64,000 nt of DNA from Escherichia coli. GTDB lineage: Bacteria; Pseudomonadota; Gammaproteobacteria; Enterobacterales; Enterobacteriaceae. A program made the position numbers and the translations under genes. This document shows, in pieces, positions 6,042 to 40,980 of the stretch. Every line of letters starts with the position of its first letter. The stretch's first letter is position 1. The stretch lies in assembly GCF_050920415.1 (NCBI RefSeq), contig NZ_CP169309.1. One strand, 5' to 3'. The notes below the pieces were generated by a model. That model saw only the letters and a list, made by a program, of their open reading frames with translations. It ran no database searches and had not been told where the DNA came from.

Positions 6042-7760
6042 ATGCGTACTAGCCAATACCTGCTCTCCACTCTTAAGGAGACACCTGCCGACGCCGAGGT
6101 GATCAGCCATCAGCTGATGTTGCGCGCCGGGATGATCCGCAAGCTGGCCTCCGGGTTATACACCTGGCTGCCGACCGGCGTGCGCGTTCTGAAAAAAGTC
6201 GAAAACATCGTGCGTGAAGAGATGAACAACGCCGGTGCGATCGAGGTGTTAATGCCGGTGGTTCAGCCATCTGAACTGTGGCAAGAGAGTGGTCGTTGGG
6301 AACAGTATGGCCCGGAATTGCTGCGTATTGCTGACCGTGGTGACCGTCCGTTCGTACTTGGCCCAACTCATGAAGAAGTGATTACCGACCTGATTCGTAA
6401 CGAGCTGAGCTCTTACAAACAGCTGCCGCTGAACTTCTATCAGATCCAGACCAAGTTCCGTGATGAAGTGCGCCCGCGTTTCGGCGTCATGCGTTCCCGC
6501 GAATTCCTGATGAAAGATGCTTACTCTTTCCATACCTCTCAGGAATCCCTGCAGGAAACCTACGATGCAATGTATGCGGCCTACAGCAAAATCTTCAGCC
6601 GCATGGGGCTGGATTTCCGCGCCGTACAGGCCGATACCGGTTCTATCGGCGGCAGCGCCTCTCACGAATTCCAGGTGCTGGCGCAGAGCGGTGAAGACGA
6701 TGTGGTCTTCTCCGACACCTCTGACTATGCAGCGAACATTGAGCTGGCAGAAGCTATCGCGCCGAAAGAACCGCGCGCTGCTGCTACCCAGGAAATGACG
6801 CTGGTTGATACGCCGAACGCGAAAACCATCGCTGAACTGGTAGAACAATTCAATCTGCCGATTGAAAAAACGGTTAAGACTCTGCTGGTTAAAGCCGTTG
6901 AAGGCAGTAGCTTCCCGCTGGTTGCGCTGCTGGTTCGCGGTGACCACGAGCTGAACGAAGTTAAAGCTGAGAAACTGCCGCAGGTTGCAAGCCCGCTGAC
7001 TTTCGCGACTGAAGAAGAAATTCGTGCCGTGGTTAAAGCCGGTCCGGGTTCACTGGGTCCGGTAAACATGCCGATTCCGGTAGTAATTGACCGTACTGTT
7101 GCGGCGATGAGTGATTTTGCTGCTGGTGCTAACATCGATGGCAAACACTACTTCGGTATCAACTGGGATCGCGATGTCGCAACCCCGGTAGTTGCGGATA
7201 TCCGTAACGTAGTGGCTGGCGATCCAAGCCCGGATGGACAGGGTACGCTGCTGATCAAACGTGGTATCGAAGTCGGTCACATCTTCCAGCTGGGTACTAA
7301 GTACTCCGAAGCACTTAAAGCCTCCGTTCAGGGTGAAGATGGCCGTAATCAGATCCTGACTATGGGTTGCTACGGTATCGGCGTAACGCGCGTAGTAGCT
7401 GCGGCAATTGAGCAGAACTACGACGAACGCGGCATCGTATGGCCTGACGCTATCGCACCTTTCCAGGTGGCGATTCTGCCGATGAACATGCACAAATCCT
7501 TCCGCGTACAGGAGCTGGCTGAGAAACTGTATAGCGAACTGCGCGCACAGGGTATCGAAGTGCTGCTGGATGACCGCAAAGAACGTCCGGGCGTGATGTT
7601 TGCTGATATGGAACTGATCGGTATTCCGCACACTATCGTGTTGGGCGACCGTAACCTCGACAACGACGATATCGAATACAAATACCGTCGTAACGGTGAG
7701 AAACAGTTAATTAAGACCGGTGACATCGTCGATTATCTGGTGAAACAGATTAAAGGCTGA
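6042..7760 (+). CDS. proS: Prolyl-tRNA synthetase
   Basis: Protein [20 protein letters not shown]... The track ORF begins 18 codons upstream at a TTG; the ATG at 6042 matches the known N-terminus. Confidence 0.96.
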
Positions 7761-7767
7761 TGCCAGA

Positions 7768-7797
7768 AAGGGTCCTGAATTTCAGGACCCTTTTTTA
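7768..7797 (+). terminator. Rho-independent terminator downstream of proS
   Basis: GGGTCCTGAA-TTT-CAGGACCC hairpin followed by TTTTTT. Confidence 0.85.
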
Positions 7798-7812
7798 CAT
7801 GGATTGTATAAA

Positions 7813-8637
7813 ATGGATAAACCAAAGGCGCACTGGTGCCTGCTTCTCCCCTGCTTTCTTTCACTTTCGGCCTGTACCGTTGACATCAGCCAGCCAGACT
7901 CATCAGCCACAGCGGTAGATGCCGCGGCAAAAACATGGGCAGTCAAATTCCAGCATCAAAGCTCTTTCACCGAACAATCAATAAAAGAAATAACAGAACC
8001 TGATCTCAAACCCGGCGATTTACTGTTCTCCTCAAGCCTTGGGGTAACCTCATTTGGTATCCGCGTCTTCAGCACTTCCTCTGTGAGCCACGTTGCAATC
8101 TTTTTGGGAGATAATAACGTTGCAGAAGCGACAGGAGATGGCGTCCAGATTGTTTCCCTTAAAAAAGCGATGAAGCATAGTGATAAGCTTTTCGTCTTAC
8201 GAGTTCCGGATCTTACCCCGCAACAAGCCACAGAAATTACCGCGTTTGCCAATAAAATCAAAGATAGCGGTTATAACTATCGCGGCATTGTCGAATTTAT
8301 TCCATTTATGGTGACTCGCCAGATGTGCTCACTGAATCCGTTCTCCGAGGATTTTCGCCAACAGTGCGTCAGCGGCCTGGCGAAAGCGCAGTTAAGCAGT
8401 GTGAGCGAAGGAGACAAAAAGTCGTGGTTTTGTTCGGAATTTGTCACTGATGCATTTGCCAAAGCCGGACATCCGCTTACGCTGGCACAGTCTGGCTGGA
8501 TTAGCCCTGCCGATCTGATGCATATGCGTACTGGCGATGTCTCTGCGTTTAAGCCAGAAACGCAGTTAGAGTATGTCGGGCACTTGAAGCCAGGGATTTA
8601 TATTAAAGCGAGTCGCTTTGTTGGTCTGACTCGGTGA
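7813..8637 (+). CDS. yaeF: Predicted lipoprotein, permuted papain-fold (YiiX/YaeF family) putative peptidase or amidase
   Basis: 274-aa ORF from the ATG at 7813 (a TTG lies 3 codons upstream). Lipobox LSLSAC. His (SHVAIF) precedes Cys (WFCSEF), consistent with a permuted NlpC/P60 arrangement. Confidence 0.85.
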   Translation: MDKPKAHWCLLLPCFLSLSACTVDISQPDSSATAVDAAAKTWAVKFQHQSSFTEQSIKEITEPDLKPGDLLFSSSLGVTSFGIRVFSTSSVSHVAIFLGDNNVAEATGDGVQIVSLKKAMKHSDKLFVLRVPDLTPQQATEITAFANKIKDSGYNYRGIVEFIPFMVTRQMCSLNPFSEDFRQQCVSGLAKAQLSSVSEGDKKSWFCSEFVTDAFAKAGHPLTLAQSGWISPADLMHMRTGDVSAFKPETQLEYVGHLKPGIYIKASRFVGLTR

Positions 8638-8642
8638 TAAAA

Positions 8643-8660
8643 GCCGGAGAATGCTCCGGC
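8643..8660. terminator. Hairpin between convergent yaeF and nlpE (possible bidirectional terminator)
   Basis: GCCGGAG-AATG-CTCCGGC perfect 7-bp stem in a 29-bp convergent spacer. Flanking T-tracts are weak. Confidence 0.45.
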
Positions 8661-8666
8661 ATTCAA

Positions 8667-9377
8667 TTACTGCCCCAAACTACTGCAATCCTGGTTTGGG
8701 TAAAATTTACCTGCCGTATCGGGCGCTAATACTTTGGTTGGCGCACCGTTATCCGGATTAGTCTCAAGCGTAAAGTGACCTTCTACTGACAGTAACACCG
8801 GTTTTTCACTGTTACCGCGCGCAGCCAGGTAGCTACGCTCCAGCTCTGCATTATTCGCTACCATGAAACGTTTTCCGGTCGCACAATCAGTAAAGGTTGC
8901 CGCATCAGCCATATAAAAATACATGCCGCGTAGAGTCATCGGCGTCACTGGCAGGCTGGATTTTGCCGGTTCCAGTGTATAGTTGAACTGCGATTCGATC
9001 GGATTGCCTTCACGATCGAGCATCTCCAACGCATCTCCTTTCGCCCGATAATATGACTTTTCACCTTTACTGTCGGTTAATACCAGTTTGTCAGCGGTTC
9101 GCGCCCATGTACCGTAGGAGGCGAAAGAGAAAGGTTCTTCACGAGCCCCCAGATAACGCTCATTCATCACCCAGGTTCCATCTTTTTCGAGGAACAGAGA
9201 GGTTTCGATACCTTCGCAATCAGCACACGGCAGCACGCCGCGCCAGCTTTGCGGCATCGGCTTCAGTTCAGCGGCCTGCGCCGGAGAAAGCGTATCGACT
9301 TCGGCTCGATTATTACATCCCATCAGAGTAAAGAGGCTGATTACAGCCATCGCTGTCACTATCGCTTTTTTCACCAT
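8667..9377 (-). CDS. nlpE: Outer-membrane lipoprotein NlpE (Cpx pathway activator)
   Basis: 236-aa ORF MVKKAIVTAMAVISLFTLMGC... with lipobox and a CxxC motif (CADC). Confidence 0.95.
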   Translation of the reverse strand: MVKKAIVTAMAVISLFTLMGCNNRAEVDTLSPAQAAELKPMPQSWRGVLPCADCEGIETSLFLEKDGTWVMNERYLGAREEPFSFASYGTWARTADKLVLTDSKGEKSYYRAKGDALEMLDREGNPIESQFNYTLEPAKSSLPVTPMTLRGMYFYMADAATFTDCATGKRFMVANNAELERSYLAARGNSEKPVLLSVEGHFTLETNPDNGAPTKVLAPDTAGKFYPNQDCSSLGQ

Positions 9378-9390
9378 CCATTCCTTCTTT

Positions 9391-9813
9391 TTATTCCCGA
9401 CCGCCGCGCACTTTGCCGCGCAACGCCTTCACGCTTGATTTTTGTGCTTTCGATACCAGCCTGCGCTCTTTTGATGCGCGGGTAGGTCGTGTCGGTCGTC
9501 GGGCTTTTTGTTCTGTTGTTAATTCTTTAATCACTGCCACCAACCGTGCCAGCGCCGCTTCGCGGTTCAGTTCCTGGCTACGGTATTCCTGTGCCTTGAT
9601 GACTATCACTCCATCGCTGCTAATCAGATGATGGCTGGCAGCGAGCAGGCGCTCTTTGTAATACTCTGGCAGGCTGGACGCTCGAATGTCAAAACGCAGA
9701 TGAATAGCCGTTGAGGTCTTATTAACATGCTGTCCGCCCGCGCCCTGTGCACGAATAGCAGTGATCTCAAACTCGCCATTGGGGATAGCAACATGTCGGG
9801 AAATCACAATCAT
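9391..9813 (-). CDS. arfB: Alternative ribosome-rescue factor / peptidyl-tRNA hydrolase ArfB (YaeJ)
   Basis: 140-aa ORF with GGQ motif (AGGQHVNKT) and a basic C-terminal tail. Overlaps the yaeQ stop by 4 nt. Confidence 0.95.
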
Positions 9814-10976: not shown

Positions 10977-11009
10977 CGCCGGATGCGACGTTTGATGCGT
11001 CTTATCCGG
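10977..11009. repeat. REP (repetitive extragenic palindrome) between convergent rof and tilS
   Basis: GCCGGATGCGACG...CGTCTTATCCGGC palindromic unit matching the REP consensus. Confidence 0.65.
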
Positions 11010-11020
11010 CTTTCACTTAA

Positions 11021-12316
11021 CTAAGCGTTTCGCCGCCAGACAAAACTTACGCCATTCTCACCTTCAGCCACACCTTCTTGCGTCACAAATACCTCTGCCG
11101 CTGCAATCAGCGTTTCGCCATAAAACAGCAGTGGCGTGGTGTCACGCAACCACGGCGGTACGCCCAGTTCCTGCCAGATTTTCTTTAACTTACGCCCACC
11201 ATTGCGCCCGACAATATGCAGCAATCCTGGCGCTTTGAAACGCACGCTGACCGCTTCGTCTGCACGCGGAGGGCGAATATCGCCTCCCGCAGTAAGCTGT
11301 ACACTTCCCAGCGCCGCCGGTAATTCCAGCGGTTGTAACCACGTCTGCCACGGCACAATGGTTTCGCTTTGCCCAGTGACGGATTTAATCCACCACAGTT
11401 GCGATTGATAGCGGCGGATTTCAAACGCCCCCAAACGTAAACAGGGGGAAGCATCTTCTCGCGCCAGCGCCACTTCCTGCCAGATCCTCACCAACGCGTC
11501 GCGGGAAGGCATCGGTGCATTCTGCCCTGCAAGCCAGCGGCGAATAATCGCCGCGCGACGGGCATCACTCATCGCCAGCATTGGCGCAATCTGCAGCGTT
11601 CCCTGCGGCGTTTGACAGTGTGCTAAATCATCCACCAGCAGTTCATCCAACAGGCTCTCTTGCTCAGCACAAAGTGCGGCGCTGCGGGCCGTTGCTTCGG
11701 CAAAATGCGGCCAACGCTGCTGCAATAACGGCACAACGCGCAGGCGCAGGAAGTTACGATCGTATGAGTCGTCCTGATTACTTTCGTCTTCAATCCAACG
11801 TAAACCATGCGCCAACGCCCACTGCTCCAGTTCTCCCCGCGTGCGGGCGAGCAACGGGCGGATAAGCCGCGTTCCGGCAAACTCCGAGATTTCCGCCATA
11901 GCCGAAAGCCCTGCAGGACCGCTACCGCGTTTTAGCGCCAGCAGAAACGTTTCACATTGATCGTCGAGATGTTGCGCTGTAACCAGCACTTCACCAGGTA
12001 ACAGGGTACGAGCAAATGCCTGATAACGTGCCTGCCGCGCCTGGGCCTCAATACCTAGCCCCTCTTGCGCAAGTTGCACACGCTCAACCACCAGCGGCAC
12101 CTGCCACTGCTGGCAGATATTTTCACAATGTTTCACCCAAGCATCAGCGTTGGCACTTAAACCGTGATGCACATGAATAGCGCGCAGGATGACGCTCGGA
12201 TTTTCCGTCCGCCACTGCACCAACTGATGCAGCAGAACGGTGGAGTCAAGCCCGCCGCTAAAGGCCACCAGAATCTGGCGTGAGATGAGAAGTTGTCTAT
12301 TGAGAGTGAGTGTCAT
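11021..12316 (-). CDS. tilS: tRNA(Ile)-lysidine synthetase
   Basis: 431-aa ORF with PP-loop motif SGGLDS near the N-terminus. Confidence 0.95.
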
Positions 12317-12380
12317 GATGGTGCGATTTTACAGTAGCAATGCCCGGCACGTTACCGGGCAAATATGGCGATGACAAGCC

Positions 12381-12770
12381 TTACTGCTCATACAGTTCCA
12401 ACGGCAGTCCGTCCGGATCGTTAAAGAATGTGAAGCGCTTTTGCGTGTAGGGATCGACACGTATGGCTTCACATTTCACGTTATGGCTTTCAAGGTGCGC
12501 CACTGCCGCATCGATATCATCAACGCTAAAAGCCAGATGACGCAGGCCGCAAGCTTCCGGTCGGCTGGGGCGCTCCGGCGGGAACGGAAATGAGAAAAGC
12601 TCAATCACATATTGCCCATTAAGCGCCAAATCCCCTTTCCACGAATCGCGCGCTTCGCGATAGACTTCGCTTTGCAGCGTGAAACCGAGAATATCGCAGT
12701 AGAAAGCTTTGCTCACCGCATAATCCGTCGCAATAATCGCAATATGATGAACCTGTTTTAAACCCAGCAT
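12381..12770 (-). CDS. yaeR: VOC/glyoxalase-family protein
   Basis: 129-aa protein MLGLKQVHHIAIIATDYAVSKAFY... The track ORF is extended 9 codons upstream. Confidence 0.88.
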   Translation of the reverse strand: MLGLKQVHHIAIIATDYAVSKAFYCDILGFTLQSEVYREARDSWKGDLALNGQYVIELFSFPFPPERPSRPEACGLRHLAFSVDDIDAAVAHLESHNVKCEAIRVDPYTQKRFTFFNDPDGLPLELYEQ

Positions 12771-12826
12771 AACGTCTCCTTTATTTGTTAACAGCACGTT
12801 ACTCGCCCGGAAGCCGCTCTGGCAAG

Positions 12827-14968
12827 TTATCCCGCCATTTTTAGGACTCGTACGCGGTAAACGCCATCTCCGTCCTGTTTCGCGCCGTGAATATCCGTTT
12901 CAAAGCCGGGGTAATGTTGCCCTACGGAACAAAGCATCAGTAGAAAATCGAGTACTGTGCGGCTCTCTTTGGTCAGCATTTCTCCAGGCATCAACAGCGG
13001 TACGCCCGGTGGATAAGGCAGGATCATATTTGCCGATACTCTACCGACCAGTTGTTCCAGCGCAATGGTTTCTACTTCACCTTTAATCTGCCGTTGCCAT
13101 GCCTGATGTGGCGTCATGATCATCTCCGGCAAAGTATCAAATGCCCGCAACATCAAACCGGGAAGATCGTGTTTACGAATCAGCTTATGTATCCCTTGCG
13201 CGAGATCCTGAATACGCATATTGCGATAAAAATCGGGATCTTCTGCATAGAGATCGGGCAGCATATTTTTGATCCGCAGGTTGAGATCGTAAGAGCGCTT
13301 AAATTCCGTCAACCCACGCAATAATCCCATTGCTTTGGTTTTATCGATGCCAATACTAAAGAGAAACAGCAGGTTATAAGGGCCGGTTTTCTCTACTACG
13401 ATCCCACGTTCGTCGAGGAATTTTGCCACCAGCGCCGCAGGGATCCCCTCATCGCTCATATTGCCCTGCTCGTCCATCCCCGGTGTCAAAATAGTGACTT
13501 TAACCGGATCGAGAAACATATGATCGGCATCCGCATCGTTAAAGCCGTGCCACTGTTCGCCAGGCGCAACGGGCCAGCATTCGGCTTCATCCACCTGCGG
13601 CGGTTGCCAGATATCGAAAAACCAGCCGTCAGACTCTTCCCGCAGCCGCTGGACCTCTTTGCGAAAATGCAGCGCTCGTTCTACTGAACGGTTAATCAGC
13701 CGTTTGCCCGGATTACCACGCAGCATCGCCGCCGCTGTCTCAACCGAAGCAACAATGGGATAACTGGGCGAAGTGGTGGTATGCATCATAAAGGCTTCAT
13801 TAAACGCCTCTTCGTCGTACTCACCTTTAATGTGGATCAGTGATGCCTGCGACAACGCCGCCAGCATTTTGTGGGTCGATTGCGTTTCGAAGAAAACTTT
13901 TCCTGCCACCCGATCGCCACTCATACCACTTTTGCCCTGATAGATCGGATGAAAATGAGTATACGGGACCCAGGCGGAATCGAAGTGGATCGAGGGGACA
14001 TCCAGCGTCTGTTTGATCCAGTCGGTGTTGTAGAGCAAGCCATCATAGGTGGAGTTGGTGATCACCGCATGAACCGGCCATTGTGCCTGCGTGGTAGCAG
14101 CGACTTTCTCTTCGATACTGTCGCGGGTAAATTCTCGTCGCGGGATCCCGCCCAGAATCCCCAACGCATTACGTGTTGGTTTTAGCCAGACCGGCACGAC
14201 ATCGTTCATCATCAACAGATGCGCCAGCGATTTATGACAATTGCGGTCAATTAACAGCGTACTGCCGGATGGCGCGGCGTACATACCCACAATTTTGTTC
14301 GACGTCGATGTTCCGTTGGTGACGATATAACTCTGTTCCGCGCCGAAAGTCCGTGAGATGTATTCTTCCGCTTCCAGATGTGGCCCGGTGTGGTCGAGCA
14401 ACGAACCTAGCTCGGTTACCGAAATAGAGACGTCCGCCTTGAGGGTATTCCCGCCGAAAAAATCATAAAACAGACAGCCTACCGGGCTTTTCTGATACGC
14501 GGTGCCGCCCATATGCCCCGGCGTACAAAAGGTGTACTTCCGCTCTTTGACATAAGTAAACAAGGCTTTAGTGAATGGCGGGGTAATGTTATCGAGATAT
14601 TCGTTGGTGTACTGACGCATACGAATGGCGATATCTTCTGCCTGCCCCAGCGCATATTCAAAGAACCAGAGCGCCATCCGCATATCCTGCACGCTGACAT
14701 CCATCGTCGAGTGAGTATTGATGAAGGCATAAAGCGGGAGATATTCATTAAGTTGATTGATATCGCTACATAAATCGAGACTGTATTCATCCCAGTCAAA
14801 AATCACGCCGCATATTCGTGGGTTGTGTTCGATAAATTTCAGCAAATCAACGCTGTTTTGTGGCCAGATAATCTGAAAACCTTGCGCCACCAGCGCCGAC
14901 TCCAGTTCTTTGATGGGCTCATCTTTATAAAAGACGCCATGCGGTCCCATAATGGCAATGATATTCAT
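12827..14968 (-). CDS. ldcC: Lysine decarboxylase, constitutive (LdcC)
   Basis: 713-aa ORF MNIIAIMGPHGVFYKDEPIKELESAL..., Orn/Lys/Arg decarboxylase family with PLP lysine region (SxHK). Confidence 0.95.
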   Translation of the reverse strand: MNIIAIMGPHGVFYKDEPIKELESALVAQGFQIIWPQNSVDLLKFIEHNPRICGVIFDWDEYSLDLCSDINQLNEYLPLYAFINTHSTMDVSVQDMRMALWFFEYALGQAEDIAIRMRQYTNEYLDNITPPFTKALFTYVKERKYTFCTPGHMGGTAYQKSPVGCLFYDFFGGNTLKADVSISVTELGSLLDHTGPHLEAEEYISRTFGAEQSYIVTNGTSTSNKIVGMYAAPSGSTLLIDRNCHKSLAHLLMMNDVVPVWLKPTRNALGILGGIPRREFTRDSIEEKVAATTQAQWPVHAVITNSTYDGLLYNTDWIKQTLDVPSIHFDSAWVPYTHFHPIYQGKSGMSGDRVAGKVFFETQSTHKMLAALSQASLIHIKGEYDEEAFNEAFMMHTTTSPSYPIVASVETAAAMLRGNPGKRLINRSVERALHFRKEVQRLREESDGWFFDIWQPPQVDEAECWPVAPGEQWHGFNDADADHMFLDPVKVTILTPGMDEQGNMSDEGIPAALVAKFLDERGIVVEKTGPYNLLFLFSIGIDKTKAMGLLRGLTEFKRSYDLNLRIKNMLPDLYAEDPDFYRNMRIQDLAQGIHKLIRKHDLPGLMLRAFDTLPEMIMTPHQAWQRQIKGEVETIALEQLVGRVSANMILPYPPGVPLLMPGEMLTKESRTVLDFLLMLCSVGQHYPGFETDIHGAKQDGDGVYRVRVLKMAG

Positions 14969-15022
14969 GTGTTCCTCCTGGAAAATCCTTCCTTAATCAT
15001 AGCCCGCTCAAACCATGGCGAT

Positions 15023-15052
15023 AAAAAAGGGCCACCGAAGTGACCCTTTTCA
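15023..15052 (-). terminator. Rho-independent terminator downstream of accA
   Basis: Minus-strand GGGTCAC-TTCG-GTGGCCC hairpin followed by TTTTTTAT. Confidence 0.75.
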
Positions 15053-15065
15053 GAACATTTGCTGA

Positions 15066-16025
15066 TTACGCGTAGCCGTAGCTCATCAGGCGCTGATAAC
15101 GACGATTTTTTAAATCTTCAGTGCTTAACACGTCGAGATCGGCCAGATCCGCCAGCAGCTGCGCTTTCAGAGACGCCGCCATCGCTTCCGGGTTACGGTG
15201 AGCACCGCCCAGCGGTTCCGGGATGATGGAGTCAATCAGTTTCAGTTCTTTCAAACGCGGAGCGATGATCCCCATCGCTTCAGCCGCCAGCGGTGCTTTG
15301 TCGGCGCTCTTCCACAGAATGGACGCGCAACCTTCCGGCGAAATAACGGAATAGGTGCTGTATTGCAACATATTCACTTTATCGCCCACGCCAATCGCCA
15401 GTGCGCCGCCAGAACCACCTTCACCGATAACGGTACAAATAGTCGGTACGCTAAGGCGAGACATTTCACGCAGGTTGCGTGCAATGGCTTCAGACTGACC
15501 GCGCTCTTCTGCGCCCACGCCCGGATAAGCCCCCGGGGTGTCGATAAAGGTGATGATTGGCATCTTAAAGCGTTCAGCCATTTGCATCAGACGCAGTGCT
15601 TTGCGGTAACCTTCTGGCGCTGGCATACCAAAGTTACGGCGAATTTTTTCTTTGGTTTCACGACCTTTTTGATGACCAATGATCATCACCGGACGACCAT
15701 CGAGACGGGCGATACCCCCGACGATAGCTTTATCGTCTGCATACGCGCGGTCGCCAGCCAGTTCGTCAAATTCATCAAAGGCCAGGCGAACGTAATCCAG
15801 GGTATAAGGACGCTGTGGATGGCGTGCCAGTTGCGCAATCTGCCATGCACCGAGATCGGCGAAGATTTTACGCGTCAGTTCTACGCTCTTTTCACGCAGA
15901 CGATGCACTTCTTCATCGATATTAATATCCAGTTTCTCATCCTGGCGGCTAACCGCAGTCAGAGAATCGATTTTCGCTTCCAGCTCTGCAATCGGCTGTT
16001 CAAAATCAAGGAAATTCAGACTCAT
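15066..16025 (-). CDS. accA: Acetyl-CoA carboxylase carboxyltransferase alpha subunit
   Basis: 319-aa [26 protein letters not shown].... Confidence 0.97.
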
Positions 16026-16037
16026 AGTATTCCTGTA

Positions 16038-19000
16038 TTAGTCAAACTCCAGTTCCACCTGCTCCGAACCAATGAGGCCACGGAGATCGTTTAATAAACG
16101 ATCGCTCGGAGAGACACGCCACGTCGCGCCAAAACGCAACCGCGCGCGTGCATCCGCCCTCTGATAGTAGAGATGTACTGGAATTGTCCCAGAGCGGTGG
16201 GGTTCCAGAGACTGACGGAGTCGGTTTAAAAGCTGGTCATCAATTTGCCTGTCCGTCAGCGAGATAGCAAGCCCGCGAGCATATTTTTCCCGGGCTTCGT
16301 CAATATCCATCACTTCGCGAGCGGTCATTTTAAGCCCACCGCTGAAGTCATCAAAGCTGACCTGTCCGCTGACGATAAGTATGCGGTCTTTTTCCAGCAA
16401 TTGCTGGTATTTATCCAGGGCGTCAGTAAACAACATCACTTCCAGCCGCCCGGAACGGTCATCCAGCGTGCAGATACCGATACGATTGCCGCGCTTGGTG
16501 ACCATAACCCGCGCAGCAACAACGAGCCCCGCAGCCGTGGTGACTTTACCACGTTCTGTCGGGTGCATGTCTTTCAGCCTTACGCCTCCGACATAACGCT
16601 CAATCTCTTTTAAATACTGGTTGATAGGGTGTCCCGTCAGGTACAGACCTAACGTTTCACGTTCCCCATCTAACACCACCTGCTCCGGCCACGGTTGGCA
16701 ACTGGCGTAGGATTGTTCAATTTGTTCCGGCTCTTCTGCCAGCACGCCGAACATATCGGCCTGACCGATGGCTTCTGCTTTCGCGTGTTGATCAGCCGCC
16801 TTTAACGCATCGCCCAGCGAGTTCATCAGCGCCGCGCGGTGTGGCCCAAGACGGTCAAACGCCCCGGACATAATCAGTTTTTCCAGCACTCGCCGGTTTA
16901 ACTTTTTGGTGTCTGTACGGGCGCAGAGATCAAACAATTCACGGAAATAGCCGCCTTTATTACGGGCTTCAATGATCGCCTCAATCGGACCTTCACCTAC
17001 CCCTTTGATCGCGCCAATACCATACACGATTTCGCCGTCGTCGTTGACGTGGAAATGGTAAAGACCGGAGTTTATATCTGGTGGCAGGATTTTCAGCCCC
17101 ATCCGCCAGCACTCATCCACCAGGCCCACCACCTTCTCGGTGTTGTCCATATCGGCGGTCATTACTGCCGCCATAAACTCCGCCGGATAGTGCGCTTTCA
17201 GCCATAACGTTTGATATGAAACCAAAGCATAGGCCGCAGAGTGCGATTTGTTAAATCCGTACCCAGCGAATTTCTCCACCAGGTCGAAGATTTTCATCGC
17301 CAGTTCGGCGTTGATCCCGTTCTTTTCTGCGCCTTCAGCAAATACAGAACGCTGCTTGGCCATCTCTTCCGGCTTTTTCTTACCCATCGCACGACGCAGC
17401 ATATCCGCGCCACCGAGGGTATAACCAGAAAGCACCTGGGCAATCTGCATGACCTGTTCCTGATACAGGATGATGCCGTAGGTTGGCTCCAGTACCGGTT
17501 TCAGGCTTTCATGCTGCCACTGCACATCCGGATAGGAGATCTCTTCGCGACCATGTTTACGGTCGATAAAGTTATCCACCATCCCTGATTGCAACGGACC
17601 AGGGCGGAACAATGCCACCAGTGCGATCATATCTTCGAAGCAGTCAGGTTGCAGACGCTTGATCAGGTCCTTCATGCCGCGCGATTCAAGCTGGAATACC
17701 GCAGTGGTTTCCGAGCGTTGCAGCATGTCGAAACTTTTCTTGTCATCCAGCGGGATCGCGGCGATATCCAGCGGCGGCTCGCCATTCTTCGCCCGCCGCT
17801 TGTTGATCATCTCCAGCGCCCAGTTGATGATGGTGAGCGTACGCAAACCAAGGAAGTCGAACTTCACCAGCCCGGCGTATTCAACGTCGCTTTTATCAAA
17901 CTGGGTAACCGGATGTTTGCCCTCTTCATCGCAATAAAGCGGCGCAAAATCGGTAATTTTGGTCGGCGCGATAACCACCCCACCGGCGTGCTTACCAGCG
18001 TTACGGGTGACCCCTTCCAGTTTGCGCGCCATGTCGATCAGCGCCTTAACTTCTTCGTCCGCTTCGTAGATTTCCGGCAGTTGCGGCTCGGCTTCAAACG
18101 CTTTCGCCAGCGTCATCCCCGGATCGGGCGGGATCAGTTTCGAGATACGATCGACAAAGCCGTACGGATGCCCCAGCACGCGGCCTACGTCGCGGATCAC
18201 CGCTTTTGCCGCCATTGTACCGAAGGTGATGATCTGCGATACCGCATCACGGCCGTACATATCTGCCACGTGTTCGATAACCTGGTCGCGTTTTTCCATA
18301 CAGAAGTCAACGTCGAAGTCAGGCATGGAGACACGTTCCGGGTTAAGGAAACGTTCGAACAGCAGGTCAAACTCCAGCGGATCGAGGTCGGTGATTTTTA
18401 ACGCGTAAGCCACCAGTGACCCTGCACCAGAACCACGGCCTGGCCCTACCGGTACGCCGTTATCTTTCGACCACTGGATAAATTCCATAACGATGAGGAA
18501 GTAACCCGGGAAGCCCATCTGGTTGATAACCTGAAGTTCAGTATCCAGACGCTCGTCATACTCCGGGCGACGCTTAAGACGTTCTTCCTCGTCAGGGAAT
18601 AAAAATGCCAGACGCTCTTCCAGGCCTTCTTTTGCACGCTTGACCAGATAATCTTCGGTGCTCATGTCCCCGGTCGGGAACTGCGGCAGGAAGTATTCAC
18701 CCAGACGCACAGTCACGTTACAGCGTTTGGCGATCTCAACAGTGTTGGCAAGGGCTTCGGGGATGTCGGCAAACAGCTCGCACATCTCCTCTTCGCTGCG
18801 CATATATTGCTGCGGCGAATAATTACGCGGGCGTTTGGGATCGTCGAGAGTAAAGCCGTCATGGATCGCGACGCGGATTTCGTGCGCGTCAAAGTCGCTG
18901 CTGTCGATAAAGCGCACGTCATTGGTCGCCACGACGGGCAAACCGCGCGCTTCCGCCAGTTCCACTGCCGCGTGCAGATAACTTTCTTCGTCCGGCCTGC

Positions 19001-19520
19001 CGGTTCGGATCAGTTCGAGAAAATAGCGATCCGGGAAGTGCTCTTCATAAAACGCAACGCACTCATCTACCAGCGCGCTGTTACCACGCAAAAGACTGCG
19101 CCCGACGTCGCCCATGCGCCCGCCGGAAAGGAGGATCAGCCCTTCGTTTAATTCGATAAGCCAGTCGCGATCGATGATAGGCCCGGCGGCACCGTACCCG
19201 CGCTGATACGCTTTTGAGATCAGCAACGTCAGATTCTGATAGCCGATATTGTTCGCCGCCAGCACCGTCAGGTGGGTTAACTCATCACCCAGCAGGTCGC
19301 ACTGGACATTAAAATCTGCCCCGACGATGGGCTTAATCCCTGCGCCATGTCCCGCTCCGTAGAACTTCACCAGACCGCAAAGGTTGGTGAAATCGGTGAT
19401 CGCCAGTGCTGGCATACCCAACGCCGCCGCCTTTTTTACCAGCGGTGCGGTTTTGGCCAGGCCATCGATCATCGAGTAGTCGCTGTGCACCCGCAGGTGT
19501 ACGAAACGTGGTTCAGACAT
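16038..19520 (-). CDS. dnaE: DNA polymerase III alpha subunit
   Basis: 1160-aa [27 protein letters not shown]... with PHP domain N-terminus. Confidence 0.98.
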
Positions 19521-19556
19521 CTTCAGATTCCGGTTTACTTAATCTCGACACAAGAA

Positions 19557-20153
19557 TCAGGACGCAAGTCCCAGTGCGCGTTTGACAGGCCCAAAGCTGC
19601 GACGATGATGTTCAGTCGCGCCATATTCAGCCAGTTTTTCCAGATGAAAAGCGGTTGGATACCCTTTGTGCTGGGCAAAACCATATTGCGGGAAAACAAT
19701 ATCCAGCGCCGCCATTTCAGCGTCGCGCGTCACTTTCGCCAGGATAGACGCAGCACTGATTTCCGGTACGCGGCTATCGCCTTTCACCACTGCCATCGAA
19801 GGCATCGGTAATTTTGGGCAGCGGTTACCATCAATCAACACATATTCCGGCGCAATATGCAGCCCCGCGACGGCGCGCTGCATCGCCAGCATGGTCGCGT
19901 GTAAAATATTCAGTTCGTCGATTTCGTGGGGTTCCGCGCGGCCCAGACTCCAGCTTAACGCTTTCTCTTTGATCTCTTCACAGAGCGCCAGACGGCGTTT
20001 TTCGCTCAGCTTTTTGGAATCATTCAGCCCGGCAATCGGGCGCGTCGGGTCAAGGATTACAGCAGCGGTAACCACCGCGCCAACCAACGGCCCGCGTCCA
20101 ACTTCATCCACACCCGCAACCAGCTGCGTGTGTGGATAAACAAATTCGATCAT
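19557..20153 (-). CDS. rnhB: Ribonuclease HII
   Basis: 198-aa ORF with RNase HII motif ([12 protein letters not shown]). 4-nt overlap with lpxB. Confidence 0.96.
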
Positions 20154-21298
20154 TGTGCTAACTCCAGAACGGCTTGTGCCGCCTGCTCATCGGCATTGCA
20201 GCGGATCTGCTGATGCAGCTCGCGGAAGGTGTCGTGCATCGCGTGGCTGGTTTTCCCGTTCGCCAACAGCGGTAACAGCGCCGCAGCCAGTTTTTGCGGC
20301 TCACACTCTTCCTGCAATAACTCTTTGACTAACTCTCTGCCCGCCAGCAAATTTGGCAGCGAGACATACTCGGTTTTCACCAGCCTCTTCGCCAGCCAGA
20401 AGGTAAAAGGCTTCATGCGATATCCCACCACCATCGGGCATTTCGCCAGCATGCACTCCAGGGCTGCCGTACCCGACGCCAGTAGCGCCGCATCACTGGC
20501 GACCATCGCCTCACGGCCCATTCCATCCAGCAGATGAACCGACAGGTCTGGCGCAACTTCAGCTTTGATACGCTCAAACTGCTCGCGGCGTTTGGCATTC
20601 ACCAGCGGCACCACGATCTCGAGATCGGGATACGTCTGACGCAAAAGCTGGGCCGTTTTCAGGAAATCGGCACTCAGCATCTCCACTTCCGCACCACGAC
20701 TTCCCGGCAGCAACGCAAGACAGTGAGCATCGTGAGGGATCCCCAGCACATCACGGGCGGCATTTTTATCTGGATCTAACGGCATGGCATCAGCCATGGT
20801 GTGACCGATAAAACGGCACGGCACGTTGTATTTGTCATAAAACGCTTTTTCGAAAGGCAGAAATGCGAGCACCAGATCGGTGGCTCTGCCTATTTTGAAA
20901 ACGCGTTTCTGTCGCCACGCCCAGACGGACGGACTGACGTAATGAATGGTTTTGATACCCTGCTTTTTAAGATTACCTTCGAGGGTAATATTGAAGTCAG
21001 GTGCATCAATGCCGACAAAAACATCTGGCTTCAGTTCGCCAAAACGCTTTGTCAGATCGGCACGAATATGCAGTAAGCGACGCAGACGACCGAGCACTTC
21101 AACAATGCCCATCACCGCCAACTCTTCCATTTCGTACCAGGCTTCGCAGCCTTCGGCCTGCATTCGTGGCCCGGCAACGCCAACAAAGCGGGCGTTGGGC
21201 ACTCGTTCTTTCAGAGCACGGATTAAACCGGCCCCCAGGATATCGCCGGAGGTTTCTCCGGCGACCAGGGCAATCGTTAATGGACGCTGTTCAGTCAT
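20150..21298 (-). CDS. lpxB: Lipid-A-disaccharide synthase
   Basis: 382-aa [28 protein letters not shown].... Confidence 0.96.
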
Positions 21299-22086
21299 TA
21301 ACGAATCAGACCGCGCGTTGAGCGTGCAAAGAAATCGGTAAAGGCTTTTACTTCCGGATATGTTTCCGCCAGTTCGGCAATTTCCGGTTTCACTTCATCG
21401 AGCGTTTTACCGCTGCGATAAATCAGCTTATACGCATTGCGGATAGCGGTAATCGCCTCACGGCTGAATCCGCGGCGCTTCAGCCCTTCGATGTTGACAC
21501 CGAACGGCGTTGCGTGGTTACCCTGCGCAATGACATAAGGAGGGACGTCCTGCGCCACACCGGAACAGCCGCCAACCATCACGTGCGCACCAATGATGCA
21601 GAACTGATGGACTGCGGTCATGCCGCCGATGATCGCGAAGTCGTCTACCGATACATGACCCGCCAGCGTTGCGTTGTTGGCGAGGATGCAGCGGTTACCT
21701 ACCGTACAATCGTGCGCAATGTGCGCGTTGATCATCAGTAAGTTGTCGCTGCCCACCTTCGTCAATCCACCGCCCTGGACTGTGCCACGATGAATGGTGA
21801 CGCTTTCGCGAATGCGGTTACGATCGCCGATTTCCACACGGGTCGGTTCGCCAGCATATTTAAGATCCTGGTTGACTTCGCCGATGGAGGCGAACTGATA
21901 AATCTCATTGTCGCGGCCAATTTTAGTATGACCATTCACAACAACGTGAGATTTCAGTACGGTACCCTCACCAATTTCGACATGGGGTCCAACGATACAA
22001 AAAGGACCAATGTGAGCGTTGGCGGCAATCGATGCGCCCTCTTCCACAATGGCGGTTGGATGCACAAAGGCGGATTTATCAATCAC
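21298..22086 (-). CDS. lpxA: UDP-N-acetylglucosamine O-acyltransferase
   Basis: 262-aa ORF with hexapeptide repeats. 1-nt overlap with lpxB. Confidence 0.96.
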
Positions 22087-22089
22087 GTA

Positions 22090-22545
22090 TCAGGCCTCCC
22101 GGCTACGAGCACACATCATCGTTGCTTCGCAAACTACTTTACCGTCGACCAGAGCAACCCCTTTAAAACGGGTCAGGCCGCGGCGCGTTTTTTCGAAAGT
22201 GACTTCCATGATCATTTGATCGCCAGGCACGACCGGGCGCTTGAAGCGCGCTTCGTCAATACCAGCGAAATAGTACAGCTCACCCGGTTCCAGTTTTCCT
22301 ACGCTTTTAAACGCCAGAATACCTGTTGCCTGTGCCATTGCTTCCAGAATAAGCACACCCGGGAAAATCGGTTTTCCAGGGAAATGGCCCTGGAAGAATG
22401 GCTCATTGACAGAGACATTTTTTACTGCGCGCAGAAAACGACCTTCTTCAAAATCCAGCACGCGATCCACCAGTAAGAACGGGAAACGGTGCGGCAGAAG
22501 TTCTAAAATCTCTTCAATCTGCAGAGTATGAGTGTTAGTAGTCAA
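22090..22545 (-). CDS. fabZ: 3-hydroxyacyl-ACP dehydratase FabZ
   Basis: 151-aa protein (L)[26 protein letters not shown]... from a TTG start. The track ORF is extended 31 codons upstream. Confidence 0.93.
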
Positions 22546-22649
22546 GATACTCTTCCTGTCAAAATATAAGAAACGACAATAATAACACGGCCTGCCGCAA
22601 TCGTAAGAATGAGACAGGCCGTAAAGTTTGGCGAACAAAAGATGGAACG

Positions 22650-23675
22650 TTAGTCTTGTTGATTAACCTTGCGCTCAAGCGATTTCAAACGCTTGCTCAT
22701 GTCATCAATGTTCATCACCAGTGCAGCGGTTTTGCGCCAGACTTTGTTGGGTTGCAGCGGAATGCCTGAGGAATAGACGCCTGGTTCAGTGATGGGACGC
22801 ATCACCATACCCATGCCCGTAACCGTCACTTTGTCGCATATTTCCATATGCCCGTTGATTACGCTGGCTCCGCCGATCATGCAGTAACGACCAATTTTCA
22901 GGCTTCCCGCCATAATGACGCCACCGGCAACCGCCGTATTGTCACCAATCACGACGTTATGTGCAATCTGGCACTGGTTATCAATGATCACACCATTGCC
23001 AATAACAGTGTCATCCAGCGCGCCGCGATCGATGGTAGTACATGCGCCGATCTCCACGCGATCGCCAATAATTACGCGACCAATCTGCGGGATCTTCACC
23101 CAGTTACCCCGATCGTTGGCATAACCAAAGCCGTCTGCGCCTACCACTGTTCCAGACTGGATCAGGCAATTCTGACCGATCTGGATCTCATGGTAAATGG
23201 TTACGTTCGCCCAGAGACGCGAACCTGCACCTATTTTGCTGTTTTTACCTACGAAGCAACCGGCACCGATAATCACGTTATCGCCCAGTTCAACGCCGGA
23301 CTCAATCACCGCGTTAGCGCCAATCGATACGTTGTTACCCAGCTTCGCCGTCGCGTCAATCACTGCACTGGGTGCAATGTTCTGCGCAGGCTGCGGCGTG
23401 GTATCTAAAATTTGCGCCATGCGCGCGTAAGTCAGGTAGGGGTTCTTCACTACCAGCGCGGCACTTTTCGCGAAAGGAAGATCGTCCTGGGTCATGACAA
23501 CCGCGGACGCCTGGCACAAGCCTAAATGCTCACGGTATTTTGGGTTAACCATGAACGTGATGTGACCTGTTTGTGCAGATTGCATGGACGCAACGCCGGT
23601 GATGACGATATCGCCATCACCGTGTAGTTCTGCATCCAACTGCTGCGCTAAATCAGCCAGTCGAATTGAAGGCAT
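22650..23675 (-). CDS. lpxD: UDP-3-O-(3-hydroxymyristoyl)glucosamine N-acyltransferase
   Basis: 341-aa [25 protein letters not shown]... with hexapeptide repeats. Confidence 0.96.
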
Positions 23676-23678
23676 TAC

Positions 23679-24164
23679 TTATTTAACCTGTTTCAGTACG
23701 TCAGCAGTGATGTCTTTTACATCGCTGCTGTTGTAAGCAACGGCGTTTGCATCAACAACCAGATCGATATCCTGGCTGTTGGCAACGGATTTCACAGCAG
23801 TCTGGATACGAGTAACCAGTTTGCCGCGTTCTTCGTTGGAACGACGAGCGCGATCCTGCTCAAAAGCCTGCGCTTTCTGAGCAAAAGTCTGGCGCTGAGC
23901 CATCACGTCTTTTTCCAGTTTGGTACGATCGCTGCCCGCTTTCATGGACTGCAGCTTTTTCATTTTAGCCTGCAGATCGGTTTCCATACGCTGCAGTTCG
24001 CTGGCACGGCCTTTGAACTCATTTTCCAGCGTGTTAGAAACACCGGTTTTCTGCGCTACCTGCTGGAACAGGCTGCCCATATTGACGATTGCAATTTTGT
24101 CAGCCGCCTGAGCAGAAGTTGCCAGTGCTAAACCGAGACCTGCAGCTAATAACCACTTTTTCAC
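23679..24164 (-). CDS. skp: Periplasmic chaperone Skp
   Basis: 161-aa ORF with signal peptide [20 protein letters not shown]. Confidence 0.96.
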
Positions 24165-24285
24165 AATAAACTCCTTACCATCCCATTTGCACCGGAGGGT
24201 GCAGTTCTTTGCGTGGCCCGGCGATCTTATATTGATCGCCTAAAGTCATCGCTACACTACCACTACATTCCTTTGTGGAGAACAC

Positions 24286-26736
<2,451 letters not shown>

Positions 26737-26747
26737 CTAACTAACTC

Positions 26748-28100
26748 TCATAACCGAGAGAAATCATTGAAAAGTGCAAGCCCCATTAACAGCACCAGCA
26801 AAATCGAGCCAATGCGATAACAAAAGTCTTGAACCCGCTCGGATACCGGTCCGCCCTTGATCTTTTCGATCGCAAGGAACAGCAGATGCCCCCCGTCAAG
26901 TACGGGCAACGGAAACAGGTTAATTATCCCTAAGTTCACGCTAATGAGCGCAAGAAACGGCAGGTAATAAACAACCCCGAGTTCCGCTGTCATCCCAGCC
27001 CCCTTGGCGATAGAGATCGGCCCACTGAGGTTGTTCAGTTTCACATCACCGGTGATCAATTTTCCCAGCATACTGACCGTCAGCTTCATCAGCTGCCACG
27101 TTTTGTCCGTGGCTTCGACGATAGCGTTGAACGGCCCATACTGGCGTACAACTTTATACTCATCTGGCAAAGGAATGACTTTCGGCTCAATACCGACAAA
27201 ACCAATCGCTTTACCATTACCCGGTTTACTCTCCGGGATTAATGTCAAAGACAAGGGACTCCCCTGTCTTTCGATTTCTAACGCTAAGGATTTACCCGGG
27301 TTATCCCGGACAAGCATCACAAAGGTCACCCACTGCGTTAAGGGCTGACCATCGACTTTAACGATCCTGTCGCCTGCTTGCAAACCTGCCTTGCTTGCGG
27401 CCGAGTTTGGCTGCACATTTTCCAGTACAGGTTCAATTTGCGGGCCACGAGGACGAATCCCCAGCGAAGATACCGGATCTTCTTTATCAGGCTCAAACGC
27501 CCAGTGACGTAAATCGAGCTTTACATCCCGTCGTTGGTCGCTGCCAAATGGCGCTACCGTAATGGTGGTGCTTTCATCGCCAATTTTATCGACCAACTGC
27601 AAACGCACGGCATCCCAATCAGGCGTTTCGATACCATCTACGGCTTTTAGTTCCGTACCTGGTGCAATTTGTGCTTCCGCAGCTATCGAATTGGCTGCTA
27701 TTTCGCCAACCACCGGACGTACGCCAGGCACACCAATAATAAAAACCAGCCAGTAGGCAAAGATAGCAAAAATGAAGTTTGCAACCGGACCTGCGGCAAT
27801 AATCGCCGCACGTTGGCCGACAGATTTATTATTGAAGGCATGGTGGCGGAGTTCCGGAACAACCGGTTCTGCGCGCTCATCCAGCATTTTGACATAACCG
27901 CCCAACGGGATCAGGGCGATGACATATTCGGTGCCTAGCTTATCAGTTCGGCGCCAGAGCGCCTTGCCAAAACCTATTGAGAAACGCTCAACGCGAACAC
28001 CACAACGCCGGGCAACCCAGAAATGACCAAATTCATGCACGGTGATAAGTACACCCAGTGCAACGATGAACGAAGCCAAATCCCAGAGAAAACTCAGCAT
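26748..28100 (-). CDS. rseP: Regulated intramembrane protease RseP (site-2 protease)
   Basis: 450-aa protein [13 protein letters not shown]... with HEFGH zinc motif. The track ORF is extended 15 codons upstream. Confidence 0.95.
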
Positions 28101-28111
28101 ATTACCTTCCG

Positions 28112-28969
28112 TTAAAGCGTCCTGAATACCAGTAACAACAAGCAAGCAAAGACCGGTACCGCAGCCGTCAGACTATCAATACGATCTAAAATACCACCGT
28201 GTCCTGGAATTAAATGACCGCTGTCCTTAATTCCTGCTTCACGCTTAAACATACTCTCGGTCAGATCGCCGAGCACTGAGGCTAACGCTGCGACAATAGA
28301 GCAAATGAGTAAGGTGACGGGAGCGACGTCGAGATTCGCCCACATGCCATAACCCCATGAGATTACCGCTGCAGTCGCGAGTCCACCGATAAAGCCTTGC
28401 CAGGTTTTACCCGGAGAAACCTTCGGTGCCAGCTTATGTTTACCAAACAATTTGCCAAACATATATGCGCCAGAGTCAGCGCCCCATACCAGGATCATGA
28501 CATAGAGCAGCCATATTGCGCCACTGTAATGATTCTCGTCGTAGTGCCAGGCCCGTAACGCCAGCATGCCCCAGAAGAAGGGAACAATGGTTAGCACGCC
28601 AAAAATAATGCGCAATGTTTTAGAGTTACGCCAGATTGCTGCGGAACCTGGGTAAAACAGCACCAGCAATAGCGCGACAATCCACCAACCCAGCGAAGCC
28701 CAAAGTGAGATTTCAACCAGCGGTTGATGAATATTTCGGTGATATTCCGGCAACAGAAAAAGCATCAGCGCCAACAATAACCCACATAACACCGCCAACC
28801 ATACTCGCTGCGAGCGAGTGGTAAAACCGCTAAGCTGTCCCCATTCCCACGCTGCCAGCATGCAGACCACCAGCGTTACAATGGCGAACCCCACCGGCGG
28901 CAACAGAAACAACGCCGCGATGACGACGGGTATTAACACAAAAGCAGATATCAGGCGATACTTCAGCAA
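28112..28969 (-). CDS. cdsA: Phosphatidate cytidylyltransferase (CDP-diglyceride synthase)
   Basis: 285-aa polytopic membrane [24 protein letters not shown].... Confidence 0.95.
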
Positions 28970-28981
28970 AAGCGACCCCCA

Positions 28982-29743
28982 TCAGGCTGTTTCATCACCG
29001 GGCTCGGTGCCGCCGAAACGACGCTCTCGATTAGCAAAGGCATTTAACGCCCCTTCAAAGTCTTGTTCATCGAAATCGGGCCAGAGAACATCTGTAAAGT
29101 AAAGTTCGGCATAGGCAATTTGCCAAAGCAAAAAGTTACTAATGCGATGCTCCCCCCCAGTCCTAATTACTAAATCTACAGGGGCCAGTTCATGCATACA
29201 GACATGCTGGTTTAGCATCTCTTCATCTATCTGATCTGGTTGCAGGTTTCCTTGCTGCACCTTTTCAGCCAGTTGCCTGACTCCCTGGACTATATCCCAA
29301 CGTCCACCGTAGTTCGCCGCAATATTCAGCGTTAGACCGGTATTTCCGGCTGTTAGCGCTTCCGATTTACGAATACGTTCTTGCAAACGCGAGTTAAAGC
29401 GACTGGTATCGCCAATAATACGCAGACGTACGTTATGTCGGTGCAGGCTTTTTACTTCGCTATCGAGCGCCCAAACAAACAGTTCCATTAACGCACTGAC
29501 TTCCTGCGCTGGTCGGTTCCAGTTTTCACTACTAAAGGCATACAGCGTTAACGCCTCAATACCGTTGTTGGCCGCAAAAGAGACAGCCCGGCGGACGGAT
29601 TTTGCCCCGGCTTTATGCCCAAAGGCACGAATCTTCCCTTGCTTTTTTGCCCAGCGACCATTGCCGTCCATAATGATCGCAACATGACGACAGCCATGTA
29701 CTGGCAATTTTTCGCTAAGTGGTTGAGTAGCAGACAACATCAC
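28982..29743 (-). CDS. uppS: Undecaprenyl-diphosphate synthase
   Basis: 253-aa ORF with HVAIIMDGNGRWA motif. Confidence 0.96.
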   Translation of the reverse strand: MMLSATQPLSEKLPVHGCRHVAIIMDGNGRWAKKQGKIRAFGHKAGAKSVRRAVSFAANNGIEALTLYAFSSENWNRPAQEVSALMELFVWALDSEVKSLHRHNVRLRIIGDTSRFNSRLQERIRKSEALTAGNTGLTLNIAANYGGRWDIVQGVRQLAEKVQQGNLQPDQIDEEMLNQHVCMHELAPVDLVIRTGGEHRISNFLLWQIAYAELYFTDVLWPDFDEQDFEGALNAFANRERRFGGTEPGDETA

Positions 29744-29796
29744 GCGTTTCTTATTCCCTGACAGGGTTTACGGTACTCAGGAATACTGAAGCCTAT

Positions 29797-29824
29797 ACAA
29801 AAAAAAGCCGTGTAAAACCACGGC
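29797..29824 (-). terminator. Rho-independent terminator downstream of dxr
   Basis: Minus-strand GCCGTG-GTTTTA-CACGGC hairpin followed by TTTTTTTT. Confidence 0.7.
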
Positions 29825-29928
29825 ATACCTGACCTTATAAAGCCAACTACTTATGGTCAGATGGCGCAGACTATATCACTGAAGCCCTACGCTAACAAAT
29901 AGCACGACTCTCTGTAGCCGGATTATCC

Positions 29929-31125: not shown

Positions 31126-31149
31126 GAAACATCCAGAGTTGAGACAGAG

Positions 31150-31198
31150 TAAAAAGCAAAACGCCGCCAGCCGATCCGCAAGGATCTACTGAGCGGCG
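31150..31198 (-). terminator. Rho-independent terminator downstream of frr
   Basis: Minus-strand GC-rich stem (CGCCGC...GCGGCG with inner GATCC-GCAA-GGATC) followed by TTTTGCTTTTT. Confidence 0.75.
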
Positions 31199-31217
31199 TT
31201 TTTTGTCGTTCAAGAAA

Positions 31218-31775
31218 TCAGAACTGCATCAGTTCTGCTTCTTTGTCTGCCAGCGCCGCTTCAATTTTCTTGATTGCAGCATCAGTCAGTTTCTGTACAT
31301 CGTCCTGAGAACGGCGATCGTCGTCTTCGCTGATCTCTTTATCTTTCAACAGTGCTTTCACTTTGTCGTTCGCGTCACGACGCACGTTGCGTACTGCAAC
31401 ACGCGCTTGCTCTGCTTCACCACGAACGATTTTGGTCAGATCTTTACGACGTTCTTCCGTCAGCGGCGGCAGCGGAACACGGATGTCGCTACCCGCAGAG
31501 TTCGGGTTCAGGCCAAGATCGGACGCCATAATCGCTTTTTCAACGGCCGGAGACATTGAACGATCAAACACGTTGATTTTCAGAGTACGGGAATCTTCTA
31601 CCGTTACGCTTGCCAGCTGACGCAGCGGCGTCGGCGTGCCGTAATATTCCACGACAATGCCATCCAGCAGGCTGGGAGAAGCACGACCCGTGCGTATTTT
31701 GCTGATTTGGGTTTTGAACGCTTCTACGCATTTGTCCATGCGTACTTCAGCATCTTTTCTGATATCGCTAATCAC
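31218..31775 (-). CDS. frr: Ribosome recycling factor
   Basis: 185-aa ORF (M)[20 protein letters not shown]... from a GTG start. Confidence 0.97.
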
Positions 31776-40937: not shown

Positions 40938-40950
40938 TGTCATTCTGTGG

Positions 40951-40980
40951 GCCGGGTAAAGTCTCACCCGGCTGTAATTT
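40951..40980. terminator. Hairpin between convergent yaeH and cdaR
   Basis: GCCGGGT-AAAGTCTC-ACCCGGC stem followed by TGTAATTTTGT on the plus strand. Confidence 0.5.

Follow-up and report, generated by a model that had tools for sequence, protein, structure and literature searches.

The 64,000-nucleotide stretch of contig NZ_CP169309.1 analyzed in this work (hereafter, the window) very probably comes from Escherichia cryptic clade I, essentially from strain MFDS1022581, and carries at three of its intergenic spacers alternative, common E. coli alleles that are shorter than those of K-12. The short forms, located between yaeF and nlpE, between yaeH and cdaR, and between hrpB and mrcB, are common alleles of the species, being present in about 10%, 33% and 35%, respectively, of 5,426 complete genomes. 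A preliminary description of the window, made from its sequence, had suspected these very spacers of being shorter than in K-12, and attributed them to strain-specific REP content; the lengths were correct, whilst the strain-specificity has to be abandoned, since the same short forms are found in hundreds to thousands of E. coli genomes.

The comparison was made directly against MG1655 155000-232000, using a global alignment for the indels. The window corresponds to the reverse complement of MG1655 224816-160509, with 96.6% identity over the aligned columns, and the alignment contains 13 gap runs, all of them 1 nt long except at the three spacers, where the window is shorter by 170 nt (yaeF-nlpE), 35 nt (yaeH-cdaR) and 102 nt (hrpB-mrcB). 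With spacer boundaries taken from the PGAP genes of the near-identical MFDS1022581 for the window and from the RefSeq genes for MG1655, this makes 29, 53 and 93 nt in the window as opposed to 199, 88 and 195 nt in MG1655, and the pairwise alignment called for by the preliminary description thus excludes identical lengths at all three spacers. The impression that most other intergenic distances are those of MG1655 was also accurate, as at the remaining 53 of the 56 gene junctions the true sequence difference does not exceed 1 nt; the apparent offsets at yaeP-rof (-6), rof-tilS (+4) and ispU-dxr (+3) reflect either the choice of start codon or a 1-nt indel close to the tilS stop. This last is a G inserted at 11032 (window 11021-11035), just before the end of tilS, which shifts the last codons and the stop, giving a TilS of 431 amino acids in the window vs. 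432 in MG1655 and a rof-tilS spacer of 52 nt vs. 48 nt; in MFDS1022581 the gene carries no pseudogene flag from PGAP. Divergence is also locally elevated in two parts of the window: yaeF-nlpE-arfB (7600-9700) is about 94.6% identical to most E. coli, vs. about 97.5% for 12000-32000, and the hrpB-thpR-sfsA end (59979-64000) is 94.4% identical to MG1655, vs. about 96.7% elsewhere.

This level of identity, together with the near-perfect agreement with MFDS1022581, bears out the earlier statement that the source is not MG1655. Over the 64 kb, the window differs from MFDS1022581 (NZ_CP169399.1, 4165029-4229028) by no more than a SNP at 56331 and three indel bases within its 16S gene. A count of 524 position-wise mismatches seemed to suggest a different strain, and this was rejected, 523 of them being a register shift caused by the small 16S indels. 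The window starts inside a minus-strand 16S rRNA gene (1-1047), where one additional C, at 375, has no counterpart in MG1655 or MFDS1022581, and an AT at 681-682 is shared with MG1655 and absent from MFDS1022581; these indels have the look of homopolymer errors or assembly noise in one of the records. Strain N96 is slightly more distant than MFDS1022581, with 7 mismatches in 4.45 kb. Over 20 kb of housekeeping genes the window is about equidistant from mainstream E. coli, being 97.3-97.7% identical to essentially all of them (K-12/BL21, O157, O111 and UPEC alike), and at least 99% identical to just 12 of the 5,426 complete genomes. The 18 complete genomes closest to the window include 2013C-4282 and EC42405, both of which are placed in cryptic clade I, a lineage sister to E. 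coli sensu stricto (Okuno et al. 2023, PMC10100065, Fig. 1 legend). Because the nearest genomes include these published clade I strains, the best description of the source is that of an Escherichia of cryptic clade I, a placement drawn from 64 kb and its nearest neighbors rather than from a whole-genome tree. The clade I-specific marker gene by which PMC10100065 detects this lineage with PCR lies outside the window. Identification of the lineage, near MFDS1022581 and outside K-12, gives useful context to the other findings in the window.

REPs were sought as imperfect palindromes of 30-40 nt with the head GCC[G/T]GATGCG and the tail CTTATC[C/A]GGCCTAC, present in many copies per genome. The scan relied on hand-typed consensus probes and amounts to a fair check that falls short of being exhaustive, and the REP identities given here rest on it, because the RefSeq MG1655 feature table has no repeat_region features at the three spacers. 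As the preliminary description had proposed, REPs were detected in just two spacers of the window. The first is a single REP-like palindrome on the plus strand of the rof-tilS spacer (10977-11009), with an exact head, GCCGGATGCG, and a degenerate tail; the second is a pair in the hemL-fhuB spacer (51023-51107), consisting of a Y REP on the plus strand (51023-51056) and a Z2-like REP on the minus strand (51072-51107). Both sites are also occupied in MG1655, which, according to the same scan, has one REP pair more, in its nlpE-yaeF spacer.

In the window, this spacer (TAAAAGCCGGAGAATGCTCCGGCATTCAA, 8638-8666) separates the convergent yaeF (plus strand) and nlpE (minus strand), and holds little else than a hairpin of 18 nt. 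Nothing in it was matched by the whole-window REP consensus scan, and the hairpin has just GCCGGA...TCCGGC in common with the y REP. It also lacks the dispersal of a REP: a query across the junction finds a median of one place per genome, as opposed to a median of 36 places for the MG1655 spacer. The hairpin (8643-8660, minus strand) has a 7-bp stem with six G-C pairs and a 4-nt loop, and is terminator-like for nlpE, with the tail TTTTATCACC on the minus strand and the tail ATTCAATTA, where the T-run is weak, on the plus strand. A terminator scan calls it on the minus strand, from 8660 to 8643, and the plus-strand fold of the region has a free energy of -19.2 kcal/mol (z = -3.76 vs. shuffled controls). 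The succession typical of an intrinsic terminator, a GC-rich stem-loop followed by a T-run, is present on the nlpE strand and missing on the yaeF strand, and the T-run itself is short, with four T (TTTTA) on the former and a poor one on the latter. Judging from these features, intrinsic termination of nlpE is most likely the role of the hairpin, which may also weakly terminate yaeF. In E. coli E69 (CP089930.1), the version of the 29-nt spacer is TGAAAGCCGGAGAATGCTCCGGCTTTCAA, a perfect palindrome of 11 bp whose A and T runs are symmetrical, and it has a cleaner bidirectional-terminator shape than that of the window.

The locus is multi-allelic and the short form is not specific to one strain. 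The window-type junction was found at full length in 548 of the 5,426 complete genomes and the MG1655-type spacer in 1,918, the rest having other forms; clade I and E. coli sensu stricto share the short allele, with 1-2 differences per 29 nt. Read in the orientation of the window, the 199-nt MG1655 spacer consists of a partial REP, an inverted Z2 REP, a Y REP, an A/T-rich linker and some 30 nt of unique sequence bordering nlpE, with the Z2 and Y REPs each at most one edit away from their consensus; about 70 nt of its extra DNA is non-REP. A third allele, 155 nt long, has a Y REP, an L linker of about 36 nt and an inverted Z1 REP, and is carried by 16 of 18 clade I genomes, as well as by Escherichia sp. 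E1V33, E. whittamii and Escherichia sp. MOD1-EC7003. In the last of these, yaeF is mostly deleted, whilst the BIME-1 and the last 35 or so nucleotides of the gene are kept. BIMEs are made of two inverted REPs and a linker, BIME-1 combining y and z1 with a long L linker and BIME-2 combining z2 and y (PMC3333891). The 155-nt allele fits BIME-1, whereas that of MG1655, with its inverted z2, y, L linker and truncated z1, is an atypical chimera: the alignment resolves it into the 155-nt BIME-1 with a 67-nt insertion towards yaeF (the partial REP and Z2) and with 22 nt deleted from Z1, and the MG1655 allele is therefore an atypical BIME. As the 155-nt allele is common to three non-coli Escherichia lineages and to 16 of the 18 clade I genomes, it is old in the genus and predates E. 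coli itself. The 199-nt spacer of K-12 would then go back to this old Escherichia BIME-1 (y, L linker and z1), which gained a z2 REP at one side and lost 22 nt in z1.

How the 29-nt allele relates to these long ones is another matter. Its derivation from BIME alleles, either by internal REP deletion or by inter-REP excision, was considered and is unsupported, because the only part that aligns is the first bases, TAAAAGC. The relationship seems instead to be one of replacement that extends beyond the spacer. Within a patch of about 370 bp around it (8501-8900, spacer excluded), the window is 93.0% identical to its clade I sister, vs. 98.7% outside the patch in yaeF, nlpE and arfB. Inside the patch, the closest of the sequences compared is a carrier of the short allele, O169:H41, at 95.1%, so none of them qualifies as a close donor; similarly, a query with the 126-nt junction against an evenly spaced sample gave 93.7% as its best full-length match outside the window's own lineage. 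The patch indicates a short homologous-recombination tract that carried the spacer allele with it. Homologous recombination is preferred to transposition because these 370 or so bp of flanking coding sequence co-vary with the allele, and a clean RAYT-mediated insertion or excision of REPs does not fit because non-REP sequence was exchanged too. The short and long alleles would thus be alternative haplotypes, swapped by homologous recombination through the flanking genes, with no clean insertion or excision involved. Both recombination as the means of spread and the direction of the changes are what we infer from the alleles as they stand.

The alternative that survives best is that the 29-nt spacer is ancestral and was kept in the lineage of the window and in some 10% of E. 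coli, the BIME-bearing spacers being later insertions. Other genera with convergent yaeF and nlpE (Citrobacter, Cedecea, Buttiauxella and some Enterobacter) do have spacers of just 28-78 nt, each with one hairpin lying between A and T runs, and the near-identity of the short alleles of clade I and E. coli sensu stricto also speaks for it. However, what the short form shares with these genera is a generic enterobacterial architecture without sequence homology, the 155-nt BIME-1 is well conserved in the three non-coli lineages and in most clade I genomes, and the short allele of the window lies in a patch that is mosaic relative to its own sisters. Ancestry of the short form is accordingly an unlikely reading, albeit one with some claim to attention. 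Presence of yaeF at this place is itself patchy: E. albertii, Salmonella diarizonae and Citrobacter sedlakii lack the gene beside nlpE, which has a simple hairpin after it and then proS. Beyond the recombinational replacement favored here, it is tempting to speculate that the 29-nt hairpin spacer and its co-varying flank of about 370 bp form a mobile 'terminator haplotype', which repeatedly displaced the ancient BIME-1 by homologous recombination across Escherichia lineages, including exchanges between E. coli sensu stricto and clade I. The odds are clearly against so general a proposal, yet, if true, the locus would be a natural system in which to measure the contribution of a BIME to nlpE expression, nlpE being the activator of the Cpx envelope-stress response.

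The hrpB-mrcB spacer differs for another reason. In the window (59882-59974), the first 80 of its 93 nt are as in MG1655, and the remainder belongs to a stretch of 15 nt, TTTACTTTGGTCTTC (59962-59976), which abuts the hrpB stop and takes the place of a 117-nt MG1655 segment containing a pair of BoxC motifs. The 102 nt that MG1655 has in excess consist of two inverted units of the form CCCTCTCCC-loop-GGGAGAGGG-loop-GGGTGAGGG, and the segment coincides with the coordinates of TMECO motifs 1 and 2 (164547-164580 and 164631-164597, respectively) in Table 1 of Holder et al. 2015 (PMC4666352), elements formerly called BoxC or PIT. BoxC is listed among the known E. coli families (PMC2267715), and has a median of eight detectable places per genome; none of the four core 9-mers of the BoxC/PIT/TMECO family occurs anywhere in the 64-kb window. 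The element-free form is present in 14 of 40 evenly spaced genomes and is put at about 1,900 complete genomes; most of the sample has the form that is longer by 102 nt, and two genomes have one longer by 39 nt. This intermediate form (14EC007, 143-274) is the MG1655 allele minus the 63 nt between the GGGAGAGGG direct repeats, with one CCCTCTCCC/GGGAGAGGG hairpin left. The hrpB stop codon (59975-59977 in the window) is TGA in alleles without the element and TAA in those bearing BoxC, including that of MG1655, and it is because of this difference that the boundary of the element can be placed at the stop. K-12 carries an inverted pair of BoxC/PIT/TMECO triplex-forming motifs directly after the hrpB stop, and the window has the element-free form. 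Among E. coli strains, TMECO loci suffer deletions and rearrangements unusually often (PMC4666352), and work cited in that same paper is reported there to have found no promoter or terminator activity for a TMECO element. The shared part of the spacer, upstream of mrcB, has an inverted repeat of its own, TTCTTCTGT...ACAGAAGAA (59922-59952), kept in all the alleles examined, which may be a regulatory or terminator hairpin.

At yaeH-cdaR no repeat family is involved. The 53-nt spacer of the window (40938-40990), between the convergent yaeH (plus strand) and cdaR (minus strand), is essentially unalignable to the 88 nt of MG1655, and contains an 8-bp hairpin, GGCCGGGU/ACCCGGCU (40950-40973), the equivalent of which in MG1655 is a different hairpin of 10 bp, CATTCCCCTC/GAGGGGAATG. 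The window-type spacer is found in 1,783 of the 5,426 genomes, always in single copy, and is 100% identical in EC958 (ST131); the rest of the sample carries the form longer by 35 nt. The MG1655 hairpin (CCCCTC...GAGGGG) was considered as a possible degenerate BoxC and rejected, its third block being absent and the spacer being single copy. Two unrelated single-copy spacers with one hairpin each, neither a dispersed repeat, segregate in the species.

Over the three loci together, the claim that the window differs from K-12 by presence or absence of palindromic elements holds for two of them, where repeat families present in K-12 are missing from the window, and fails for yaeH-cdaR, where one hairpin stands for another. 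Its narrower version, that REPs are responsible, is correct for yaeF-nlpE only, and even there the difference is an allele replacement; hrpB-mrcB belongs to BoxC/PIT/TMECO and yaeH-cdaR to single-copy sequence. For the same reasons, it is very unlikely that mobile REPs, simply gained or lost through the RAYT/TnpA-REP transposase, explain all three differences. The K-12 yaeF-nlpE spacer certainly has REPs that the window lacks, and excision or integration of BIMEs mediated by TnpA-REP has been proposed by Ton-Hoang et al. (PMC3333891). Yet REPs occur at just one of the three sites, and there the window lacks, besides them, the 30 or so non-REP nucleotides next to nlpE that are common to all long alleles, and 21 nt of the 29-nt allele are without counterpart. 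Nor would REP transposition account for the co-variation of the coding flanks, and the alignments made include no filled and empty pair that differs by one REP or BIME unit with a GTAG/CTAC junction. That the short spacers are sequencing or assembly artefacts, such as collapsed repeats, is next to impossible: the small 16S indels of the homopolymer type, which the window shows against MFDS1022581 and MG1655, do mean that assemblies are not error-free, but identical short forms recur in 548, about 1,900 and 1,783 independent complete genomes, elements of 35-170 nt are far too short to collapse in assembly, and the genes on either side keep their reading frames and stop codons.

The variation seen here is all of kinds already known between E. 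coli genes, and implies no new element, gene or mechanism. The three spacers illustrate three known modes, namely BIME remodelling, presence or absence of BoxC and replacement of one hairpin spacer by another, and the K-12 BoxC elements concerned were already catalogued, by coordinate, as TMECO 1 and 2 (Holder et al. 2015, PMC4666352). The importance of such ordinary, documented strain-to-strain variation is small. A mildly useful by-product is the yaeF-nlpE allelic series of 29, 155 and 199 nt, which could be used to study the effects of REPs and BIMEs on the 3′ ends of convergent transcripts.

Among known systems, the one closest to the yaeF-nlpE locus is that of REPs and BIMEs, loci of which vary between E. 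coli strains (PMC3333891; Nunvar et al. 2010, PMC2817692; Bachellier et al. 1997, Genetics 145:551, as reported by citing papers). The z2 and y REPs of the K-12 spacer belong to it, and the 155-nt allele is a textbook BIME-1, in single copy and at the 3′ ends of convergent genes, with its y, L linker and z1. The window departs from this system in having no REP at this place, its single-copy 29 nt having just the outer GCCGGA/TCCGGC in common with the y REP, and in that its short allele is related to the long ones by replacement rather than by addition or removal of a unit. The hrpB-mrcB locus resembles the BoxC/PIT/TMECO family in that the 102 nt found in K-12 and missing from the window are TMECO motifs 1 and 2 of PMC4666352, at a kind of locus often deleted or rearranged among strains; it differs in that the window has the empty form, with nothing of the family present.

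The GC-rich 7-bp stem of the yaeF-nlpE spacer, its 4-nt loop, the A-run before it and the T-run after it on the nlpE strand are those of the intrinsic terminators that separate convergent genes, although the T-run of the window is short (TTTTA), and poor on the yaeF strand, and its role in termination is predicted. In Cedecea, Citrobacter and related genera, the equivalent spacer is a clean palindrome of A-run, hairpin and T-run. Finally, alternative, or 'switched', intergenic regions between conserved genes have reportedly been described in E. coli, by Oren and colleagues (2014, PNAS) and by Thorpe and colleagues (Piggy). The yaeH-cdaR and yaeF-nlpE spacers resemble them in being unalignable alternatives that occur at substantial frequency between conserved genes, and differ from them in their location between convergent 3′ ends, because of which any effect they have would be on termination or on mRNA 3′ ends, and not on promoters.
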